Of a stretch of 64,000 nt of DNA, positions 2,387 through 31,393 are shown in pieces (positions within the stretch are counted from its first letter, which is position 1; each line of letters begins with the position of its first letter). The notes under the pieces are model-generated. The model ran no database searches. It had not been told where the DNA came from and saw nothing but the letters and a program-made list of their open reading frames with translations. Source of the DNA: a virus (taxonomy: Duplodnaviria > Heunggongvirae > Uroviricota > Caudoviricetes); the IMG/VR virus record IMGVR_UViG_2541047860_000002; one strand, given 5' to 3'. The position numbers and the translations under genes are program-made.

Positions 2387-3328
2387 TTAACTAACAATCC
2401 AGTCCGTAGCAACAACATCCTCTGGAGCTAAATCAATCGCATGGATTTTCCCATCCCGGATAGTGCGCCAGTGCTTTCGTGATCCACCTTCGGGCCATAC
2501 CCATACACCTTCAGGCCAAGATGCTCGACGGCATACGATTGCATACCCTGTTTTAATCCTCTCTCTGGCGGTATGCAACGACAGGTTTGCCTTTGGACTT
2601 TCAGGCACAGGATGGTGGATTGCCTGAAACATCCCCATCTTTGGATGATACCAGCGTTTATTGCGTGGTTCTGCCTCCGACATCACCTGCTTAAAGGCTT
2701 TCCGGAAGGGGGCCAGAGCCACAATGGAGCGTCGCGCAAGCAAGCCATCGGGGGTCAAAAACTCATGTGTATCGGTGGGAATCCGGTAAGCGTTAACCAG
2801 GTTGCGGCATTTGGCTTCAGTCAGGCCGCATTTCGCCGCCAGCTGGCGGTAGCCAATGTAACCTTCCGGCATATTGCCTTTCTTGATTTGCTCGAGTGTT
2901 TCAGCAACCATCGATACTTGTGCTGATACCTCGGCTACCTGGGCATTTACGGCGTTGATCCGGCGTTCATGCTCAAGATGCATTTGCGCCATTTCAGCCA
3001 GGATTTCGGCTTTTGATTTTAACTGTACCCGGGCATTCTCCAGTTCGCGCCAGCGGTCCACTAGCCGGGCGGTAAATTCGGGAGAGAGCTGCGCGACGAC
3101 AACAATGCTGTCTCGTTTTCCTTGCTCGCCTTCGAAGACATAGACCGGATCTTTGACAACCTTCCCTAAGTTATTGATTCTTTCGACGAACTCATTTTGA
3201 GTTTCTCGGATGACACCGCTAGCCATCATATTGCGAATGGTACGTAAAACATTGCCGTGACGACTACCAACTAACTCTGCAATATCTAGGCTACTCATTG
3301 TCGCTTTTTGAGAGATGGACAGATTCAT
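2387..3328 (-). CDS. Rha-family phage antirepressor-like protein with C-terminal DUF2829-like W-rich extension
   Basis: 313 aa; N-terminal 235 aa is a paralogue of the ORF at 39966-40673; the extra C-terminal ~75 aa (W-x-G-W ... DL ... DWIV) is homologous to the separate ORF 39769-39969. Confidence 0.7.
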   Translation of the reverse strand: MNLSISQKATMSSLDIAELVGSRHGNVLRTIRNMMASGVIRETQNEFVERINNLGKVVKDPVYVFEGEQGKRDSIVVVAQLSPEFTARLVDRWRELENARVQLKSKAEILAEMAQMHLEHERRINAVNAQVAEVSAQVSMVAETLEQIKKGNMPEGYIGYRQLAAKCGLTEAKCRNLVNAYRIPTDTHEFLTPDGLLARRSIVALAPFRKAFKQVMSEAEPRNKRWYHPKMGMFQAIHHPVPESPKANLSLHTARERIKTGYAIVCRRASWPEGVWVWPEGGSRKHWRTIRDGKIHAIDLAPEDVVATDWIVS

Positions 3329-3543
3329 CAGTGCACCTCCACGCAGTTCATCGGCAGATTCCAGTAATTGAGGATCTCCATCGCATCAAGAGTGAAGCGA
3401 GCAGCAAAAATGCAGGGTTCTTCGGGAAGGTATGAGCGCGCCTCTGATTCGGTAGCAGCCATGACGCAGATATACAGGTGCTTTTGGCAGGAATAGAAAC
3501 GCCAGATAAATTCAGAATGAGTTGGGGTAGGGATAGTAGCCAT
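3328..3543 (-). CDS. small conserved prophage protein
   Basis: 71 aa; paralogue of ORF 40673-40897 (shared EFIWRF...QKH...AATE.EARS motif); start overlaps upstream gene stop. Confidence 0.5.
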   Translation of the reverse strand: MATIPTPTHSEFIWRFYSCQKHLYICVMAATESEARSYLPEEPCIFAARFTLDAMEILNYWNLPMNCVEVH

Positions 3544-3855
3544 ATTGGCAGCCTCCTTTTGCTAATTTAAGGAGCTACCGCGTGAGGTCTCAATCTCAAT
3601 GGCGGTAGCACTGGCTGGGTTGAGACTACCGGCGCAAAAGGGAACCGGCCTGCCTTTCGGCAGCCCAGCCAGCACTACCATTGATCTTGGAGCTATACGC
3701 TACGTATGGCTGTGCGATGGCATGACACAAAAAAAGACGCTTTCGGCGTCTGTGTCGCCTTTTGCATTATCCGGGGTCTCAATCCCGGCACCCGTTTTTC
3801 TAAGGTGCCGTAGAAATATACCCCACGATAATGCCAGGGCGCAACAGTCAGTATT

Positions 3856-4023
3856 TTATGCTTTGGCGGATTTTTTCCGGGCTTGCTTGCAGGCGTAGGC
3901 CATTGCTTTAGCTTTCACTTCATCCAGCTTCCCGGTGATCACTTCTTTTCCGAGAGTGACAAACCAGTCATAGCAACCGCCAGTAATGTTCTTGATTTGA
4001 AAGTTGAGGTAGCGAACAGTCAT
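3856..4023 (-). CDS. small hypothetical protein (55 aa)
   Basis: Hand-translated ORF below the 60-aa track cutoff, with a G-rich RBS-like stretch before the ATG. Confidence 0.25.
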   Translation of the reverse strand: MTVRYLNFQIKNITGGCYDWFVTLGKEVITGKLDEVKAKAMAYACKQARKKSAKA

Positions 4024-4344
4024 TTTGACACCCCCAGCGCGAGTAAAGAATGCAGATTATCGCGTGAGTGGTGGACGACGAGTGATGGGAAAAGACTGTA
4101 GTTGTTCATAGTGTAGTGACTCCTTGCTTTCGGAGCCGCCATCGACTGTTCCACGGTCTGGTGGCGGCGCAATAAAGGCTGGAACACCGTGAGTCAACGG
4201 GGGCTTTTCAGCCACCTATATTGCACCGCCATAGGTATGGCGGCGGCAATAATACGAAAAACTAAACAGTTTGTCTCAAAAAGTTGACCGGTGTGCCAAT
4301 CGGTAGTGAATGTACATCGGAGAAATTTTCAATTCAACTTAAAA

Positions 4345-4361
4345 TGTTAGAAAACTAATTT
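4345..4361 (+). promoter_or_regulatory. recurrent motif TGTTAGAAAACTAATTT (candidate operator/promoter element)
   Basis: Full 17-mer; overlaps the stop codon of the Ref-like gene. Confidence 0.4.
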
Positions 4362-5829: not shown

Positions 5830-6143
5830 GCTGGCGGGGATGGGGAAGGGCAGAAATCATGATACTCCGCCAGTGCGCCGGAACTATGACGGTCGAGAGT
5901 ATTGGGAAGCTGATCGGTCGTACCGGTGATGCCGTCAGGACTAAAGCGCGGGAGTTGGGGATCAGCATGATTCTGAAAGGAGACTTTCATCCGTCAGCCA
6001 AATACCGGCAGAGCGATATAGAACTGGCACGGCAGCTTCATCAGTGTGGTGTTCCCCGCCGTGAGATCGCGGAAAAACTCGAAATGCCCCTGGGCATGAT
6101 TAATCAGTACGTTTATTTCGAAAGGAGAGTGTATGAAGTCTGA
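5826..6143 (+). CDS. hypothetical protein
   Basis: 105-aa ORF in the plus-strand early-gene array; start uncertain. Confidence 0.4.
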   Translation: MSWRGWGRAEIMILRQCAGTMTVESIGKLIGRTGDAVRTKARELGISMILKGDFHPSAKYRQSDIELARQLHQCGVPRREIAEKLEMPLGMINQYVYFERRVYEV

Positions 6144-6642
6144 AGGTTTAACGCCCGCACAACTGGCAGAGCGTAACGCTGAGTATGTAACGGAAATTTC
6201 CCGACTTGAGCAAGAACGCTCGGCGCTGGCGGCGGAGAATGCGGGAATAAAGTCTGCAATTCCAGAATCACGGGATATTGAGGATGACAATGACAATATG
6301 GATGACGTATCTCTCGCGGAAGATTTCGGGTTCAATCATGCAATAGAACTGATGAGGAGACGGATTCCTGAAACTCCGGCCACCGACGCTTTCCTGGCTG
6401 AAGTACGTGCGGAGGCACGCAACGAGGGGATTAACTACACCGCAAGCCGTCTTGCTGCTGCGTTCAATCACGGATTTATCAATAAGTCTTTGCGTGAAGT
6501 TTTCGACGTTACACGCATGATTTTGTCAGCGAAAGAAGAGTTGGCTAATGAACCGCATCCGCTTGATGGCCTGTCCGGTGAATATGCGGAGAAATCCCTA
6601 GAAGAATGGGCGGAACAGATTCGCAAAGGAAGCAGCCAGTGA
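6133..6642 (+). CDS. hypothetical protein (acidic, coiled-coil)
   Basis: 169 aa; start preceded by AAAGGAGAGTGTATG cassette. Confidence 0.5.
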   Translation: MKSEGLTPAQLAERNAEYVTEISRLEQERSALAAENAGIKSAIPESRDIEDDNDNMDDVSLAEDFGFNHAIELMRRRIPETPATDAFLAEVRAEARNEGINYTASRLAAAFNHGFINKSLREVFDVTRMILSAKEELANEPHPLDGLSGEYAEKSLEEWAEQIRKGSSQ

Positions 6643-8132: not shown

Positions 8133-8157
8133 TCAAATCATTTACGCACTCAAAATT

Positions 8158-8167
8158 TGTTAGAACA
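8158..8167 (+). promoter_or_regulatory. recurrent motif variant TGTTAGAACA
   Basis: Inverted pair with 8179-8187, 45-70 bp upstream of the 8230 gene. Confidence 0.4.
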
Positions 8168-8178
8168 TTGATTATAGT

Positions 8179-8187
8179 TTTCTAACA
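8179..8187 (-). promoter_or_regulatory. recurrent motif TTTCTAACA
   Basis: Partner of 8158-8167. Confidence 0.4.
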
Positions 8188-8229
8188 TATTATTTTACCG
8201 CTCGGAACAAAACAGAGTCGGTATACATT

Positions 8230-18201: not shown

Positions 18202-18259
18202 AGCACCCTCCGAAATAGGCGAGGGTACTTTACAGCAAAGATAACAATCTAAAAAGATG

Positions 18260-18276
18260 TGTTAGAAATTTAATTT
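18260..18276 (+). promoter_or_regulatory. recurrent motif TGTTAGAAATTTAATTT
   Basis: Overlaps the stop codon of the recombinase gene; reads TTTCTAACA toward the 17857-18201 operon on the minus strand. Confidence 0.4.
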
Positions 18277-25554: not shown

Positions 25555-25630
25555 TGGTGGCCCCTACCGGACTTGAACCGGTGACCGTGCGATTATGAGT
25601 CGCCAGCTCTAACCACTGAGCTAAAGGGCC
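25555..25630 (-). tRNA. tRNA-Ile2-like (anticodon CAT; could be read as Met)
   Basis: 76-nt cloverleaf with CCA end; near-identical to the E. coli ileX-type sequence as recalled. Confidence 0.8.
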
Positions 25631-25784: not shown

Positions 25785-26612
25785 TTATTTCACCGGAACA
25801 AACGGAACAGCGGTATTACTGGTCATATACTGCGGTAGCGTTCCGTTCCATTTGTTGATCGCTTCCAACTCCATAACGCCGGGGTTCTGGCGCAGAGCCT
25901 CACCGCGTAAACGAATGGCATCAGCTTCAGCCTGGGCTTTTGTGCGAATGGCATCGGCCTGTCCAGCAGCTTCTGCGCGCAGCATGTTGGCTTCTGCTTC
26001 GCGTTGCTTGACTTCCTGCTCGCGTTGCAGAGTTTTCTGGTTCGCCGTGACTTTGGCATTAATGCTGTCGATAACGGTTGGCGGGTACTCCGGCTTGCCC
26101 ACATATGAGAGGCTCATTACCTGAATACCGATGGGCGTCATTTCTTCCTGAATGTCTTTAAGGGCTGCATCAAGCAATTCAGATTTGCCACCGTCGATAA
26201 ATTTGTCGGTGGTCATTTTGCTGGCTAACCGGTTCAGAGCATCTGCAACCTTCTGGCGTAGATCGGTATCAGTAATATCATCTACACCTTTGCGATAGGT
26301 CTGAAATACCGTTGTGACTTTTGCTGGATCAACCTTGTAGGCTACGCCGATGTGGTAACCAATGGTTGTTCCGTCGCTCATCTGGAAGCTGAACGGCTCA
26401 TCGTATGTCTTCATTTGCTTAAAGGTCGGGAAGATATAAACTTCAGTATTCAAGCCTGTCCAGTAGCGACCAACGCCAACTACTTCACCGATACCTTTAT
26501 CATCCCCCAGCTTATTTACTTTGATCCCTACGTTACCTGGCTCTACCCGATCGCATCCGGTCAGACATAAAGAACCAAAAATAATCGCTGCACTAATCAA
26601 CGTTTTTTTCAT
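25785..26612 (-). CDS. SPFH/band-7 domain lipoprotein
   Basis: 275 aa; lipobox LCLTGC after signal peptide; prohibitin-like core and C-terminal coiled coil. Confidence 0.7.
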   Translation of the reverse strand: MKKTLISAAIIFGSLCLTGCDRVEPGNVGIKVNKLGDDKGIGEVVGVGRYWTGLNTEVYIFPTFKQMKTYDEPFSFQMSDGTTIGYHIGVAYKVDPAKVTTVFQTYRKGVDDITDTDLRQKVADALNRLASKMTTDKFIDGGKSELLDAALKDIQEEMTPIGIQVMSLSYVGKPEYPPTVIDSINAKVTANQKTLQREQEVKQREAEANMLRAEAAGQADAIRTKAQAEADAIRLRGEALRQNPGVMELEAINKWNGTLPQYMTSNTAVPFVPVK

Positions 26613-26829: not shown

Positions 26830-27092
26830 CCTCTCACTCCATTATTTACCGAATAAAAAAGCTGCGGTGCCTGGTGCCTCCAGGTGACGTTAACCAGTTA
26901 ACAATTAACGCCGGGATGTTTGACTTAACCACTAAGGAGGATTGTTTTAACTGTTCCGCGTGCGCTTAGCCGCATTCACCGCAATGGTAAGAGCACTTGG
27001 CTGGCTGGGCGGCGATGACGCCTGTACGCATTTGGTGATCCGGTTCTGCTTCCGGCATTCGCTTAATTAGCCAAATACTCTTAACGTTGCAC

Positions 27093-27179
27093 TGGCGGAG
27101 AGTAATGGAATCGAACCATCATCGCTTGCGCAATGGGACGGTTTTCAAGACCGCTTGAGCACCATGCTCCCTACTCTCC
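27093..27179 (-). tRNA. tRNA-Ser-like (anticodon TGA), type II
   Basis: 87 nt; 7-bp acceptor stem, CTTGAAA anticodon loop, long variable arm, CCA end; fold checked by eye only. Confidence 0.55.
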
Positions 27180-27581
27180 AGTGATTGTGATGGTCGGTGC
27201 TGAACTCCGACACAGGGTTGTAGCAAGCCCCGCAAAGCGCGCACTACTGTAGTTGCGGCACATCAGCCTGTGCATTCACCACAATGTTGAGAACACTGGT
27301 TGTCACGCTGCAACGCAACATTTATTCATAGATTGGGATATGACCCCGTTACGCCAGTGTTCTCAACGTTGTGGTGCCGGTTACGGTTCCGGCCAGGCCT
27401 CTTCCTCAACGGGGTGTTCTCCATACGGACTACCGTTTATTGGTCGTTCCTGCGGTTTATGTTGTGAAGCCAGATGCTTATCTTCTGGTTGCTTCAAAGA
27501 GCTGCACTTCATCACAACGGTAAGAGCACTCGATGCATTTAAGCCAAGCCCCATAAGGGAGAATGCCCTTACCTGTTGTGT

Positions 27582-27657
27582 TGGTGCCGGTTAACGGACT
27601 CGAACCGCTGACATCCTGCTTACAAGGCAGGCGCTCTACCAACTGAGCTAAACCGGC
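27582..27657 (-). tRNA. tRNA-Thr (anticodon TGT)
   Basis: 76 nt, canonical D and T arms, CCA end. Confidence 0.8.
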
Positions 27658-27661
27658 AATT

Positions 27662-27748
27662 TGGTGGGGAGTGATGGAGTCGAACCACCCGAGTCGCAAT
27701 GACAGTAGATTTACAGTCTACCCCGCTACCCCTACGGACTAACTCCCC
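27662..27748 (-). tRNA. tRNA-Tyr (anticodon GTA), type II
   Basis: 87 nt with long variable arm, CTGTAAA anticodon loop, CCA end. Confidence 0.7.
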
Positions 27749-27753
27749 TAAAT

Positions 27754-27830
27754 TGGCGATGGTGGGTGGATTCGAACCACCGACCGACAGCTTAGAAGGC
27801 TGCTGCTCTATCCTACTGAGCTACACCATC
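27754..27830 (-). tRNA. tRNA-Arg (anticodon TCT)
   Basis: 77 nt, CTTCTAA anticodon loop, GGTTCGAATCC T-arm, CCA end. Confidence 0.8.
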
Positions 27831-28897
27831 ACTTGCCGGGTACGTCTCCGGCGAGGGCTTCCACCTCCGTATGCTTTTCGGCGCACCGCGCCCTGGCTGC
27901 AATTCGGTAACAGGGGATGCACAACCCTGGCTTCCAGCGTGATTAGCGCCTTCAGCATGACGGGATATACCCGTAGTAGGATGTTATCCCAGAAAGCCAT
28001 TAATCAATGGCTGTTACGCGGGAGGGACGTAACAGGTAAGGGCGCTGACCAGAAAGACCTGACCCTTCTCATTCATCTGGTTAATCACACCAGCGCCCTT
28101 GCCTGTTATGCCTCCCCGTTCCCTAATACACAGACGGGGACACTCTGCGGTCGATTTTTTGACGGGGGACGACTCATACCCCGTGGCGTCTGGCTTCTTA
28201 GGCCGCTACCATCATCAGATCATCGTTTGCATTTACTTTAATGGTCGGTTTCTAAACCGCCGCAAAGTCGCTAACCATGACGAAAACCCTAAAAAAGCCC
28301 ACCCGAAGATGGGCAAATACGCTACATCTCACACAAGAAAGAAGCCGACTGCCTGAGCTGGATTCACTTTCAAATGCCCGCAGAAAGGGATCACAAGTCG
28401 GCTTCTTTCTTGATGCGGCACTCTCTCCGCCCGTCACCGCTCTGTCTCGGTTGTCGCGTTTGCCACGCCAGCCGTAACGAGGTTTAAAGTCTTTACACGT
28501 TTCCATCACTCGACTGCCGTCTGTGGCTGTTCGTTGCAGCGGGGGTGCCTCCCCCTGGGGATATCCCCGGCCTTACCCCATTCTTTCAAGACACAATGCA
28601 AGGCCACATCCGCATAGGTGCATTACCGCAACATTAAGGAGACTCAGGGCAAAAGGTAACCGCCACAAAAATCCCTATGCCTCCTTAATGTTGAAGATGT
28701 GCATTGATGATTAGATGCAGCATGTACCGTTACTCTCTGCCGGACCATCATCAATGAACACCTTAAAAAGACCTTCCGTGGCTCAACATGTATTGTCGTT
28801 TACTCCGCAAAGTGCTCTCTCTGAAACCACTTTCCGCACTAAACCTGCTGAACTTTGGCCTGCACGGTGCCAAAGCGTGCTCTTGCATTACCATCCT

Positions 28898-28906
28898 TTT
28901 CTAACA
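28898..28906 (-). promoter_or_regulatory. recurrent motif TTTCTAACA
   Basis: In the ORF-free region upstream (minus strand) of the tRNA cluster. Confidence 0.35.
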
Positions 28907-29053
28907 CTTTAATTTGTTAAATGCTGGTGGGCGAACAATAACCAATAAGTGACTATCAAGCCCAGCAAGCGAAACGTGGGTACTGCCCACCAGCAAGGAA
29001 AATTCTATGTTAAGTTATCTCCACAATCAATACATTCGAATTGTGATTTTAGA

Positions 29054-29062
29054 TTTCTAACA
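29054..29062 (-). promoter_or_regulatory. recurrent motif TTTCTAACA
   Basis: 3 bp before the stop of the 407-aa gene; oriented toward the tRNA cluster. Confidence 0.35.
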
Positions 29063-29064
29063 CA

Positions 29065-30288
29065 TTATTTCCCATAAAGATCTTCTACACCCCCATTCTT
29101 CTTATCCCATTCGTTCGCCCATACCCGGCAAGCGTCAATGATTTCCTGACGACGATCTCCTTGCATGAACGGGATGCTTTCATGGAAACAGCTTGGAATG
29201 CAGGCCACACTGAATACAGTATCAAACTCCGTCTGCTTGATTGCCTCCAGCGTCTCCGGACGCATTTTTAATTCATCGATTGGCGCATCCTTAGAGTCCA
29301 TAATCCGGCGATATAAGCGCGGAAAATCCGTCTCCAGGTACGCCATAATTTTATCTGCGAGACATTCGTCTATGTCGGTATTCCAGTCCTTTTCGAAGCC
29401 CGGCAGGCGATAGTAAAGCGGCGTTCCCCATACCGATGGGATCACATCCATCGTTAACAGGCGATTGGTTCTGATTTGTTGATGGTAATTAGCCGTCAAC
29501 AGTGCTTCGCCACGCTGCCCTGTTTCCGCAACCAGGCCGTGCGGATACTCATGGATGTAGGCAATGGCATCCCTTCCATCATACATGAGTGGAAATGTCT
29601 CTGGTCTTTGTCCCATGCCACAAGCACGGTTCAGATCGTGACCAAGCTGTGAGCACTCTCGCTTTAATGTTTCGATAATGCTCTGCGCTGTAGCCAACTT
29701 TTTACGCAGTGTGACGCCTTCGCCTTGATAATCAATGCATTGCTGATTGAGCTTGGTTAAACGCTCTTTTAGTTCCCTGCGCTCTCTTTTCAGCGTGCGG
29801 TTATCCTTCTCCGCAACATCCAGCCGCTTTGTCAGGCTTGGCGGATAGTCTTTTTTGTAACGGTTCAAATCGGCTTCGGCAGATTTACGCAGTGTATTTG
29901 CCTGTTCAAGACGCGCTTCCAGATTGCCGATCTCATTACGCATATTCGCGGCAAATTGATTAACTGCATCACCTAGGCTTTCAACTGTCGCTGATACGCC
30001 TGTGACTTGTGAAAAACGGATCAAGCCATCATTAACGGCTTGTTGGTATTCCTCAAACTGATCCACCAGCTTATTGTAATCAACTGCCCCATCATCAAGC
30101 AGCTTGTTGATTTCCGCCACCAGGTTATCTGTAGTGGCAATGACACTCTCGTGCAGTCGCTTTGACAGGTCATCACCCGGATTCCGTTTCTGTATAAGAG
30201 CGATTTGTGTGCGCAGCGTTTCAATTGCTGTCGAGATAATTTCCAGATTAGAAGTATCAGTGTGTTGACTCATTGCTGTTCCCGTCAC
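29065..30288 (-). CDS. hypothetical coiled-coil protein
   Basis: 407 aa; N-terminal ~230 aa heptad-rich, C-terminal globular part with conserved Cys/His; probable start at the internal ATG (30273). Confidence 0.5.
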   Translation of the reverse strand: MTGTAMSQHTDTSNLEIISTAIETLRTQIALIQKRNPGDDLSKRLHESVIATTDNLVAEINKLLDDGAVDYNKLVDQFEEYQQAVNDGLIRFSQVTGVSATVESLGDAVNQFAANMRNEIGNLEARLEQANTLRKSAEADLNRYKKDYPPSLTKRLDVAEKDNRTLKRERRELKERLTKLNQQCIDYQGEGVTLRKKLATAQSIIETLKRECSQLGHDLNRACGMGQRPETFPLMYDGRDAIAYIHEYPHGLVAETGQRGEALLTANYHQQIRTNRLLTMDVIPSVWGTPLYYRLPGFEKDWNTDIDECLADKIMAYLETDFPRLYRRIMDSKDAPIDELKMRPETLEAIKQTEFDTVFSVACIPSCFHESIPFMQGDRRQEIIDACRVWANEWDKKNGGVEDLYGK

Positions 30289-30294
30289 TTTGTT

Positions 30295-30311
30295 AAATTA
30301 GTTTTCTAACA
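30295..30311 (-). promoter_or_regulatory. recurrent motif TGTTAGAAAACTAATTT (minus strand)
   Basis: Full 17-mer about 20 bp upstream of the probable start of the 407-aa gene. Confidence 0.45.
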
Positions 30312-30386
30312 TATTTTATTAGTTTGATGACGGTATCGGAAGATGCAATAAACAAAAAACCCGCTAATTGGCTGGTTTTTATGCAA

Positions 30387-30897: not shown

Positions 30898-31393
30898 TTA
30901 ATCAAGACAAACATACTCCGTGATAGCTTTTATGGCTTCAGCGGCACTGCGCGCCTCAAAGCAGTAGTAACCGGCTTCAGTGAGGCGGGTCATCCAGACG
31001 AGTTGTTCGGGAGTCAGGCGATTTCTCCCATGTTTCATCTCAATGCGCATTCCGTGGTATCCCCCCACAAGCAAGGTCTATAGAAAGATCGGGATATCCC
31101 TTCTTTTGGCCCTCTGCCACCATTTTTATTGCCGTCCTTATGCCTCGCAGGCCACCGTTTGGAGTGGCGTGAGTATGCTCATACACATAACGCATATTGC
31201 GATACAACCAGTCCAGGACGCGAACCTGCTCGTAATGCTCATGGTTCCTTTTGATTAGATCTGGGTTTTTCTCCAGTTCTCTAAGAGCTGCGGCATGTGG
31301 GGATGTTTCAGAATATTCACTGCGACGCCTTCTCTTTCGCGCTATTTTTCTAACACACATATTGATAGTAAATATGCGAAATAATAACAACAA
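30898..31393 (-). pseudogene. VRR-NUC domain nuclease, frameshifted at a C6/G6 homopolymer
   Basis: N-terminal frame (track ORF 31040-31393) carries the conserved NGG and PDL motifs then stops; the C-terminal E-x-K and LTPEQ motifs continue in another frame to 30898; a 5-nt tract would restore one ORF. Confidence 0.55.
31347..31355 (-). promoter_or_regulatory. recurrent motif TTTCTAACA
   Basis: Lies within the first codons of the VRR-NUC reading frame. Confidence 0.3.

Follow-up and report, generated by a model that had tools for sequence, protein, structure and literature searches.

A noncoding leader precedes the tRNA genes of a D6-like phage-plasmid

The DNA analyzed here (hereafter the window) is a 64,000-nucleotide stretch of the IMG/VR virus record IMGVR_UViG_2541047860_000002. 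Our subject is its gene-free segment at positions 27831 to 29060, part of which appears to specify an RNA derived from transfer-messenger RNA (tmRNA). By sequence, the window belongs to the P1 family of phage-plasmids and is of the D6-like kind. Positions 27400 to 29400 match Escherichia phage D6 with 95.8% identity across 97% of their length, and an Escherichia coli plasmid matches positions 27831 to 29064 with 99.9% identity. A total of 619 plasmids match this latter interval, 106 of them over at least 80% of its length. Unless marked (+), the parts of the leader and of the tRNA operon of the window described below lie on the (-) strand.

The region sits between a pmgS-like gene, whose end is at 29065, and a set of tRNA genes. 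ARAGORN and Rfam assign the nearest of these as tRNA-Arg(tct), tRNA-Tyr(gta), and tRNA-Thr(tgt) (27582–27830), which are predicted to be cotranscribed with the region, and ARAGORN places a tRNA-Ser(tga) at 27093 to 27179 and a tRNA-Met at 25555 to 25630. Because all five tRNAs of the window are on the (-) strand, the region lies upstream of them in the direction of transcription, as had been proposed in an earlier reading of these letters (the original prediction). That reading also held that no credible open reading frame (ORF) is present, and this proved correct. The longest ORF on either strand spans at most 85 codons, and a search with the four longest against Pfam and NCBIfam returned, as its sole match, a Pfam zinc finger far below threshold (E = 0.12). 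In close relatives, the candidate ORFs are broken by in-frame stops or by indels that are not multiples of three.

Two parts can be distinguished by their distribution. Positions 27831 to 28317 are common to P1-type elements (~89–91% identity with records of P1-family phages, 88.7% with the P1 reference NC_005856, and 78% with the counterpart in a Klebsiella IncY plasmid), and positions 28318 to 29064 are found in the D6 lineage only. The P1 ban operon is ordered as Pban with the bivalent C1 operator Op72, a “dicF-like region”, trnA, trnT, tciABC, trnI, and ban, and the homologous stretch is the leader between the C1-controlled Pban/Op72 and trnA-trnT-...-ban. The leaders of P1 and the window have the same terminator, the same tag module (described below), the same junction with the tRNAs, and a position downstream of a C1-controlled promoter, which in the window is a candidate one. 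They differ in the promoter-proximal part, which is ~170 nucleotides (nt) long in P1 and an unrelated ~700 nt in the window. The “dicF-like region” annotated in P1 (68791–68892) lies upstream of the terminator and ends on it, and the tmRNA-like module further downstream is unannotated. Identity with the DicF small RNA (sRNA) was considered and rejected, as the Rfam DicF model matches neither P1 (E values up to 10) nor the window (E values up to 1). The region is best described as the noncoding (-)-strand leader of a putatively repressor-controlled tRNA operon in a D6-like phage-plasmid.

The RNA of this leader is predicted to fold more stably than expected from its composition. The (-)-strand RNA spanning 27831 to 28293 has z = -3.6 relative to dinucleotide shuffles, with 0 of 100 as good, and the RNA spanning 28291 to 28996 has z = -6.2 (0 of 20 as good). 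A structured leader had been suggested originally, and this is borne out by a conserved promoter, an intrinsic terminator, the strong excess of folding, and covariation. The alternative suggestion of a noncoding RNA locus is borne out by a conserved RNA module common to hundreds of phages. The structure is kept in related elements, as indicated by compensatory changes in a 17-bp stem (in relative L004) and in the pseudoknot and hairpins of the module. An Rfam search had been recommended; carried out on the window, on P1, and on six relatives that are lambdoid or lytic, it yielded only tRNAs and sub-threshold noise (miRNA-like matches on the hairpins, STnc240, MicA, YrlA on the tRNAs). The original interpretation is therefore partly supported; what it overlooked is a tmRNA-like frame, a pseudoknot, and an anti-tmRNA arm at 28100 to 28290.

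A tmRNA-like tag frame is present in hundreds of phages

tmRNA is the main bacterial ribosome-rescue system and a known determinant of phage development, and the E. coli SsrA tag that it encodes is ANDENYALAA. In the P1-shared half of the leader, a tmRNA-like resume context (GACCAUUAAAGUAAAU, 28231–28246) is followed by the frame GCA AAC GAU GAU CUG AUG AUG GUA GCG GCC UAA (28198–28230), the translation of which is ANDDLMMVAA followed by a stop. A start codon is lacking, and an in-frame UAG is present seven codons upstream. As in standard and permuted tmRNAs, this start-less frame opens at a GCA alanine codon after an A-rich stretch, with AUA at positions -6 to -4, which tmRNA genetics has found to be important for selection of the resume codon. 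The 10-residue tag conforms to AND[DEN]xxxx[AV]A and is close to that of E. coli, the stop codon lies in an H5 hairpin, and H-type pseudoknots with A-rich linkers lie just downstream. The resume region UAAAUGCAAACGA is, moreover, identical in many permuted tmRNAs. The Rfam tmRNA_permuted model aligns to the tag stretch with 24.1 bits (E = 0.0067 in a 651-nt search), a sub-threshold score relative to the gathering value of 47, and the beta_tmRNA model gives 11.8 bits, also sub-threshold.

A scan of IMG/VR for UAAAUGCAAACGAUGA yielded two kinds of loci. The first comprises permuted tmRNAs that are called by ARAGORN, and the second is a family, including the window, that ARAGORN does not call; true permuted tmRNAs were readily called in this same scan. 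A second viral scan (…GAYAA) recovered mostly environmental permuted tmRNAs. Since UAAAUGCAAACGA is common to environmental permuted tmRNAs and the module of enterobacterial phages, a common phage-borne ancestry of the two is hinted at by sequence. Many of the IMG/VR contigs retrieved (L007–L250) carry ARAGORN-called permuted tmRNAs with tags such as ANDDSFTPMALAA, ANDERFALAA, and ANDNFA…ALAA.

When one lambdoid member of the family was used as a blastn query, 752 phage records were matched (Salmonella, 272; Escherichia, 218; Klebsiella, 110; Erwinia, 38; and others), and these records annotate “none” or “hypothetical protein” at the module. The carriers include HK620, Felix-O1-like (SUSP1), Vi1-like (Det7), and N4-like (EC1-UPM) phages, siphoviruses, and P1/P7. 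In HK620 the module is in the late leader, from pR'-qut to tR', and in SUSP1 it is between tRNA-Ile and tRNA-Arg behind a TTGACA-17-TATAGT promoter. Contigs of the L110 type have it behind a TTGACA-17-TAGATT promoter. The module is single-copy in the window (nhmmer, E = 3e-44), and a genome scan located it in only 4 species representatives.

Variation in the tag stretch has a coding-like pattern. Among 72 loci, the frame has 26 nucleotide versions that encode 15 peptides, for example ANDDVVLMAA, ANDDLMLMAA, ANDEQFLAVA, ANDNAFLAVA, and ANEEMYLAVA, and each version spans exactly 10 codons. The stop, always at the same position, can be UAA, UGA, or UAG. Variation is greatest at third codon positions (7 of 10 sites, with a mean of 2.8 states), compared with 4 of 10 sites and a mean of 1.5 states for second positions, and in nearly all versions neither of the two other frames is open. 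The constant length, the use of all three stops, the third-position variation, and the closed alternative frames together constitute the signature of a translated tag. Closer to the window, no difference in the tag segment separates the window from D6, P1, or two plasmids, and the Klebsiella plasmid has one synonymous change (GTA to GTT). Six family tag peptides, including ANDDLMMVAA, were looked for in the searchable literature and none occurs there, though an earlier remark elsewhere is possible. From this evidence, the P1-shared half appears to be a widespread, unannotated, tmRNA-derived RNA, and we are confident that the module is a functional, tmRNA-related structured RNA.

The module folds into covarying helices and a pseudoknot

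Covariation was evaluated with a 36-sequence alignment (A3) and a seven-helix model that includes a pseudoknot. In this model, 87.9% of the alignment cells are paired compared with 78.4% in shuffled alignments, none of which (0 of 500) is as high. The covariation score of the whole structure is 0.315, compared with 0.150 in shuffles (again 0 of 500) and with 0.05 to 0.115 when the pairing partners are slid.

The tag frame runs into an H5-like hairpin (28184–28211), which has the stop codon in or near its loop and is formed by an outer UGG/CCA and an inner GGC/GCC helix. The outer helix is 94.9% paired in the family, where GC (22 sequences) is exchanged for AU (13 sequences). Directly downstream, covariation supports an H-type pseudoknot with an A-rich linker, termed PKa (28150–28184). 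Stem 1 of PKa joins ACGGGG (28179–28184) with CCCCGU (28162–28167), and stem 2 joins the loop sequence GUCG (28170–28173) with CGAC (28150–28153). Double changes are present in 3 of 5 pairs of stem 1, and all four pairs of stem 2 covary (CCGA:UCGG, CCAG:CUGG, CUAG:CUAG, and GUCG:CGAC), with 97.9% paired. The next hairpin, H6 (28113–28140), has the stem UCCCCGU/ACGGGGA and the loop CUGUGUAUUAGGGA, which is the P1-type form of the conserved GUGUGAUUAAUAA loop of the family. Here all four stem pairs covary and the GUGUGAUUAAUAA loop is conserved. A PK1-like pseudoknot within the module (CUUUG:CAAAG) was also tried and rejected: it is 79.8% paired with one double change and inconsistent registers, and its nucleotides are better read as part of the antisense arm described below.

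The conserved hairpin-loop motif UGAUUAA occurs twice in the leader of the window, in 28113 to 28140 and at ~28072 to 28090. It is complementary to UUAAUCA at nucleotides 236 to 242 of E. coli ssrA (the PK3 region), and this complementarity may reflect a second kissing contact or a chance 7-mer.

An arm upstream of the tag frame is complementary to host tmRNA

Comparison with E. coli K-12 ssrA by RNAduplex identified an antisense arm (GGGUUUUCGUCAUGGUUAGCGACUUUGCGGCGGUUUAGAAACCGACCA, 28242–28289). In 35 of 36 members, the longest perfect complement to ssrA is (UA)GUUUUCGU(C), which is also the most conserved motif of the module. It pairs with nucleotides 96 to 106 of ssrA (GACGAAAACUA), which are codons 3 to 6 of the host tag. 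Arms of 36 to 38 nt pair in a collinear manner with ssrA nucleotides 68 to 106 at -32 to -38 kcal/mol, and for most members 0 to 2 of 200 shuffles are as good. With the full arm of ~50 nt, pairing extends over ssrA nucleotides 54 to 106 with 38 to 43 pairs and -41 to -49 kcal/mol (z = -3.9 to -5.2, 0 of 100 shuffles as good). The full arm of the window reaches -49.2 kcal/mol with 38 pairs to nucleotides 56 to 106, again with 0 of 100 shuffles as good. A background control consisted of 176 windows of 363 nt each, none of which matched the shorter arms of L017 and EC1-UPM.

The target at nucleotides 54 to 106 covers the 3' half of the host pseudoknot PK1, the A-rich linker, the resume codon, and codons 2 to 6. 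Among ~110 enterobacterial prophage-flank contigs sampled, ssrA nucleotides 50 to 124 are identical in 50 and nearly identical in most. By inspection, the arm fits the host sequences AGUC-GC and GACGAAAAC, and not the module's own AAAU-GC and GAUGAUCUG. The diverged members SUSP1 and L021 address the same ssrA segment via partly other nucleotides (for example, CUAUUUU:AAAAUAG and GCGGCU..UUUUUA:UAAAAAGCCGC), and in SUSP1 and L110 the position of the promoter places the predicted 5' end of the transcript at the start of the arm.

There is a man-made parallel to this arrangement. A classic anti-ssrA oligonucleotide reportedly contains GTAGTTTTCGTCGTTTGCGACTA, which is almost the phage arm sequence. 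Synthetic anti-ssrA oligonucleotides employed in ribosome display and cell-free translation are antisense to the tag-coding region, block tagging and release, and suppress trans-translation in vitro (PMC3384345). Unlike the phage RNA, they are DNA and have no surrogate message attached.

Proposed action of the module on host trans-translation

The anatomy of the module, its conservation and covariation, the coding-like variation of its tag, its complementarity to ssrA, and the promoters of relatives at the start of the arm are the computed results given above. From these we infer that the module is transcribed and processed, that it pairs with host tmRNA in vivo and inhibits it, and, with the greatest reserve, that the phage tag is used. 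The steps would be as follows. Transcription would start at a sigma-70-type promoter (29002–29030) that is flanked by two C1-operator-like sites. The transcript would cross the ~700-nt lineage-specific folded RNA and then the terminator or attenuator at 28291 to 28314, and read-through would continue into the ~460-nt P1-shared segment and then the tRNAs, whose processing would release the segment. The segment would present, in order, the antisense arm, a linker of ~10 A-rich nt that has AUA at -6 to -4, the GCA resume codon with its 10-codon degradation-tag-like frame, the stop-codon hairpin, and the H-type pseudoknot.

The arm (28242–28289) would then pair with nucleotides ~54 to 106 of host tmRNA, unfolding PK1 and covering the host resume codon and first codons, such that the host message is turned off. 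In the resulting complex, the intermolecular helix would take the place of PK1, and the phage linker and resume codon would emerge at about the native distance. Ribosomes that have stalled, once rescued by SmpB and the tRNA-like domain of the host, could thereby continue on the phage-encoded tag.

We favor, by a modest measure, the view that the module acts on host trans-translation by pairing with tmRNA, and we lean to the same extent toward the phage RNA blocking, and possibly replacing, the tmRNA message. Full message replacement on a hijacked tmRNA, wherein a docking helix of ~40 bp causes ribosomes to append a phage tag (ANDDLMMVAA or ANDEQFLAVA) instead of ANDENYALAA, is put forward only tentatively, and we are similarly guarded about the phage tag actually being used. 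Blocking has a precedent in the synthetic anti-tmRNA oligonucleotides; replacement has none and is the weakest point of the scheme.

Several observations weigh against the scheme as a whole. To our knowledge, no mechanism loads the message of a second RNA onto the ribosome through tmRNA, and all evidence presented here is computational, consisting of sequence, predicted folds, and predicted pairing. With a terminator directly upstream and no internal promoter found, expression of the module in the window depends on read-through; expression of ban implies read-through in P1 as well. RNAduplex allows large loops and has a high background, and the pairing partner was E. coli K-12 ssrA only. The G-rich 38-nt arm of the window (-36.1 kcal/mol) is equaled by 3 of 200 shuffles and by 6 of 176 background windows, and the duplex energies of SUSP1, L021, and L049 are not significant. 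Given that the family members are related, their constant target site amounts to one evolutionary observation rather than 36. Finally, in plasmid NZ_MH781719 the arm has been lost to a tnpB insertion, and the tag and pseudoknot are kept at 78% identity.

The alternative that survives best, which we nonetheless regard as rather unlikely, is a pure antisense inhibitor or sponge. Such an RNA would pair with host tmRNA and inactivate or destabilize it, its frame and pseudoknot would bind tmRNA factors (S1, RNase R, or the ribosome), and its tag would never be translated. The computed antisense arm is consistent with this possibility, no new loading mechanism is needed, and there are precedents in the synthetic anti-tmRNA oligonucleotides (PMC3384345) and in the tRNA-like-domain-only tmRNA of mycobacteriophage DS6A, which is reported to inhibit host tmRNA (PMC4131195). 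However, inhibition alone leaves unexplained the constant 10-codon length, the occurrence of any of three stops at the same place, and the third-position variability. It also does not account for the tag-like chemistry (AND[DEN]..., hydrophobic residues 6 to 8, and a C-terminal AA or VA) or for the conserved AUA at -6 to -4 before GCA. Phage RNAs that pair with host RNA are familiar from AgvB and AsxR of enterohemorrhagic E. coli prophages, which are anti-sRNAs or RNA sponges that base-pair with host regulatory RNA. Those RNAs use short seeds on Hfq-dependent sRNAs, in contrast to ~40 bp on tmRNA here, and they do not resemble the module in its mimicry of the downstream half of its own target.

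If message replacement on host tmRNA is true, host and virus would together form a hybrid two-piece tmRNA, and hundreds of enterobacterial phages would be able to reprogram the fate of stalled-ribosome proteins. More generally, a conserved message-only tmRNA relative with an arm against host tmRNA would constitute a new viral route to control host translation quality control. Its presence can be tested directly, since host and phage proteins are predicted to carry phage-specific tags. Such an RNA would also account for conserved sequence that has long gone unannotated in the ban leader of P1, in the late leader of HK620, and in the tRNA arrays of Felix-O1-like and Vi1-like phages. The module is the natural counterpart of the anti-ssrA oligonucleotides of ribosome display, and it represents a whole class of tmRNA derivatives that current tmRNA finders miss.

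The module lacks a tRNA-like domain

At default thresholds, ARAGORN identifies no tmRNA in the window, in P1, or in any family locus, and the Rfam tmRNA models do not call the module either. Relaxed thresholds caused ARAGORN to report dozens of spurious “tmRNAs” that were discarded as noise. A T-loop-like GGTTCRA was not found between the terminator and tRNA-Arg. Unlike a tmRNA, the module has no acceptor stem, T arm, G3:U70 pair, or CCA end, and so it cannot be alanylated, nor can it engage SmpB and EF-Tu in the manner of a tmRNA. Where a tmRNA has its 5' tRNA-like half and PK1, the module has the ~50 nt that are antisense to host tmRNA.

An acceptor piece is also not apparent nearby. Unlike a two-piece tmRNA, the module has no such piece upstream, and a search for complementary acceptor strands gave none. 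The sequence upstream of the module differs among the P1, D6, and lambdoid types. In SUSP1 and L110, near-consensus promoters end 7 to 10 nt before UAGUUUUCGU, too close for a 5' acceptor strand to be accommodated. The entire SUSP1 unit, together with one cassette, is contained in the 280 nt that separate two tRNAs. Several candidate parts fail on complementarity or conservation: a T arm formed by the terminator hairpin, an acceptor piece made of the P1 CUGGG..CCCAG hairpin and ACAAACCACC, a 5' acceptor strand provided by GGGUUUU, and a downstream tRNA acting as a tRNA-like domain in cis. As judged from its sequence, the module appears to be derived from tmRNA and to be devoid of a tRNA-like domain.

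Exhaustive tmRNA surveys of RefSeq phages report ssrA only in mycobacteriophages, Bacillus phage G, and the DS6A relative that consists solely of a tRNA-like domain (PMC4131195, PMC11915505). The phage-borne tmRNA relatives that we found described so far are either complete tmRNAs or a fragment with the tRNA-like domain only. The DS6A RNA resembles the module in being a phage-borne truncated tmRNA derivative that is thought to disturb host trans-translation (PMC4131195, PMC11915505). Otherwise the two are mirror images: DS6A has only the tRNA-like domain and would titrate SmpB, whereas the module has only the message and pseudoknot, plus an antisense arm.

A split (two-piece) phage tmRNA, of which the module would be the coding piece and a tRNA-like cassette or neighboring tRNA of the same array the acceptor, is very unlikely. 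In favor of this reading, ARAGORN-called permuted tmRNAs on environmental viral contigs have the resume region UAAAUGCAAACGA in common with the module, and “T-cassettes” as well as a cassette with GGGGCUUGGCUU accompany the module in many arrays. Yet no cassette has a G3:U70 acceptor stem or a strand complementary to GGGGCUU, and a search for a T arm with AAGYYCC gave one unrelated hit. By inspection, the acceptor-like stem of the T-cassettes carries U3:G70. The cassettes are, in addition, inconstant partners of the module, as seen in SUSP1, HK620, and the window, and the arm matches host tmRNA rather than any phage sequence.

The cassettes have a distinctive organization of their own. At 27513 to 27580 of the window, a long-stem cassette (CACAACAGGTAAGGGCATTC ... 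GAGTGCTCTTACCGTTGTG) encloses UAUGGGGCUUGGCUUAAAUGCA, in which what resembles the 5' end of a tmRNA (GGGGCU..GGCUU) is joined to a resume context. The UAUGGGGCUUGGCUUAAAUGCA cassette is present in 15 fetched loci, where it is directly upstream (L108, L014, and L015) or downstream (SUSP1) of the tag module. The tRNA-like T-cassettes occur within the same long stems in P1 (L002, ~5960–6200, (-) strand), L017, L056, L119, and L021. In each, a canonical GGTTCGAATCC T arm is combined with an acceptor-like stem of 7 bp and one extra hairpin, and ARAGORN calls none of them a tRNA. The acceptor-like stem covaries between the P1 and lambdoid copies and keeps U3:G70.

Terminator and distal structures of the P1-shared leader

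The border between the D6-specific and P1-shared parts coincides with an intrinsic terminator or attenuator identified by a terminator scan (28291–28314), in which GCCCATCTTCGGGTGGGC is followed by a T-run. This element is conserved in P1, where it is the one on which the annotated “dicF-like region” ends. Distal to the module, an inverted-repeat scan located a long imperfect hairpin with 27-nt arms (28021–28117), the tip of which is a second CUGG-UGUGAUUAA-CCAG hairpin. By inspection of an alignment, the window, P1, and L005 are distinguished by compensatory changes from U-A to C-G and from G-C to G-U, and the G-U pairs fit the (-)-strand RNA only. This hairpin is probably a site for double-strand-specific processing, for which RNase III is a candidate.

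A pseudoknot-like element, PKb (27895–27930; CAGGG..UGCA..CCCUG-UUACCGAAU-UGCA), has the same design and A-rich linker as PKa. Its architecture was recognized by eye, and its sequence is 100% conserved in the window, D6, and P1. The leader ends (27831–27864) with GUGGAAGCCCU (27854–27864) and a terminal CCGG..CCGG hairpin (27836–27851). The 11-mer GUGGAAGCCCU is identical to ssrA nucleotides 202 to 212. The junction with tRNA-Arg (27830/27831) is presumed to be an RNase P cut. Nucleotide homology of the whole leader to E. coli ssrA was not detected beyond short motifs, and comparison of “Part B” of the region with ssrA gave only chance-level 8- to 9-mers.

In the Klebsiella pneumoniae plasmid NZ_MH781719 (L006), a tnpB element of the IS200/IS605 type lies between the conserved terminator and the tag frame (2876–4233). 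This plasmid has no tRNAs after the leader.

These distal structures bear on a reading to which we give little credence, namely that the leader is an ordinary one whose stems serve only attenuation and processing by RNases III, P, and E and whose tmRNA-like stretch is the decaying remnant of a tmRNA that an ancestral phage once had. Long imperfect hairpins do flank the tRNAs and modules, a terminator is located inside the leader, and one lineage tolerates an insertion sequence in the module. A relic, however, would not have persisted across unrelated morphotypes in 752 phage genomes with its 10-codon frame intact, covarying pseudoknot stems, and a near-consensus promoter of its own.

The D6-lineage half carries a promoter, operator-like sites, and a structured RNA

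Conservation of the D6-specific half (28318–29064) was judged on an alignment of seven relatives with 83 to 99% identity. The only promoter-like hit between 27000 and 30500 is the sigma-70-like sequence TTGATT-17-TAGAAT (29002–29030). Among relatives that are 83 to 93% identical, the hexamers TTGATT and TAGAAT/TAAAAT are conserved and the 17-nt spacer is variable. This promoter is predicted to drive the leader and the tRNA operon.

Two sites with a recurrent motif had been noted in the region, and both are present. The motif TTTCTAACAYWTTAWTT occurs in 7 copies in the window, compared with 0.7 expected. Operator-like site O1 (TTTCTAACACATTATTT, 29054–29070 (+)) overlaps the stop codon of the pmgS-like gene and is ~24 bp upstream of the -35 element. 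Site O2 (TTTCTAACACTTTAATT, 28898–28914 (+)), recognized from the recurrent motif and the alignment of relatives, is located in the L072/L005 lineage within the spacer of a CTAACA-17-TATAAT promoter-like sequence. Two copies of GTGTTAGAAAT are kept in all D6-lineage relatives. By hand alignment, a motif site of the window is identical to the P1 C1 operator ATTGCTCTAATAAATTT at 12 of 17 positions, and no exact match to the P1 C1 operator consensus is present in the window. The recurrent-motif sites are candidate C1 operators of a D6 type. The other five copies of TTTCTAACAYWTTAWTT are found at 4337 to 4353, 8153 to 8195, 18252 to 18268, 30303 to 30319, and 31347 to 31363, of which the copy at 8179 to 8195 is paired in inverse orientation with a related 17-mer at 8153 to 8169. 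This scattered layout resembles the mono- and bivalent C1 operators of P1.

The predicted transcript of this half is ~700 nt long, highly structured, and ends at the intrinsic terminator. It begins with a stem-loop (28922–28995) whose arms (28985–28995 and 28922–28932) form an 11-bp perfect inverted repeat. These arms, GCTGGTGG and CCACCAGC, are kept even in relatives that have an unrelated interior. A D6-specific structured block follows (28530–28767), which contains hairpins at 28747–28767/28691–28711 and 28673–28693/28629–28649, the palindrome GGGGATATCCCC, and the hairpin GGGGGAGGCACCCCC (28541–28555). Within this block, ~190 nt (28530–28720) are nearly invariant in the seven relatives, and the flanks differ by 10 to 17%. 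Just upstream of the terminator is a perfect hairpin of 17 bp with a 45-nt loop (28334–28412), the stem of which is preserved in relative L004 by two compensatory double substitutions.

The repeats named in the original prediction can all be recognized among these elements, at or near the positions given there. The 17-bp stem is as described, with arms (28334–28350 and 28396–28412) that are 100% complementary, and the palindrome is at 28557 to 28568. The “10-bp stem” exists, although its length was underestimated: the arms (28629–28649 and 28673–28693) are 21 nt long and 86% complementary with a 13-bp perfect core. Inverted repeats not mentioned there are 28021–28047/28091–28117 (27 nt), 28691–28711/28747–28767 (21 nt), and the perfect 11-bp repeat of the 5' stem-loop.

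The structured block also overlaps a 31-residue hydrophobic ORF (MWRLPFALSLLNVAVMHLCGCGLALCLERMG, 28573–28668), in an arrangement that resembles type I toxins: a Shine-Dalgarno-like AAGGAGG is buried in the 5' arm of the 28629 to 28693 hairpin. We consider it improbable that the D6 half conceals a small-protein gene of this type-I-toxin-like kind, with its ribosome-binding sequence sequestered by the hairpin. AAGGAGG is located 11 to 12 nt ahead of a TTG start, the predicted peptide is hydrophobic, and the block is nearly invariant, with a TGT/TGC difference that is synonymous in this frame. On the other hand, no family in Pfam or NCBIfam matches the peptide, and relative L114 has a 2-nt insertion and an in-frame stop. 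The near invariance of the block leaves almost no substitutions for a coding test.

The proposal that the region is a replication origin or an origin-like element can be set aside, as only the absence of genes and the inverted repeats speak for it, whereas DnaA boxes, iterons, and an AT-rich unwinding element were all not found in the region and the homologous P1 DNA is a transcribed operon leader, with neither oriR, which is located elsewhere, nor oriL. The lack of DnaA boxes and iterons agrees with what had been reported before; tandem repeats are also absent, and GC content is 0.45 to 0.58 except at the promoter.

Mosaic features of the surrounding operon

In the downstream operon, tRNA-Tyr(gta) and tRNA-Arg(tct) (27662–27830) stand where D6 and P1 have a single tRNA-Asn. 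With ~84% identity to the tRNA-Tyr/Arg pairs found in rV5-like lytic phages, this pair suggests that unrelated phages have exchanged tRNA cassettes. An ORF of 275 codons with a lipoprotein-type signal (…LTGC; 25785–26612) replaces tciA and tciB of D6 and P1, and from its position it appears to be another mosaic replacement inside the same operon.

The tRNA-Ser(tga) called by ARAGORN at 27093 to 27179 scores 44.6 bits with the Rfam tRNA-Sec model, just below the 47-bit threshold, and the amino acid of the corresponding tRNA in the D6 record is not assignable by tRNAscan-SE. In the spacer 3' of this tRNA (26863–26983), there is a sub-threshold match to STnc100, a Salmonella sRNA family (39.4 bits against a gathering value of 47, E = 4e-6). 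In the D6 record itself (L001, NC_050154, 5650–6355), the annotated tRNA strand is opposite to that of the ARAGORN calls and the P1 annotation, which is probably an annotation error.

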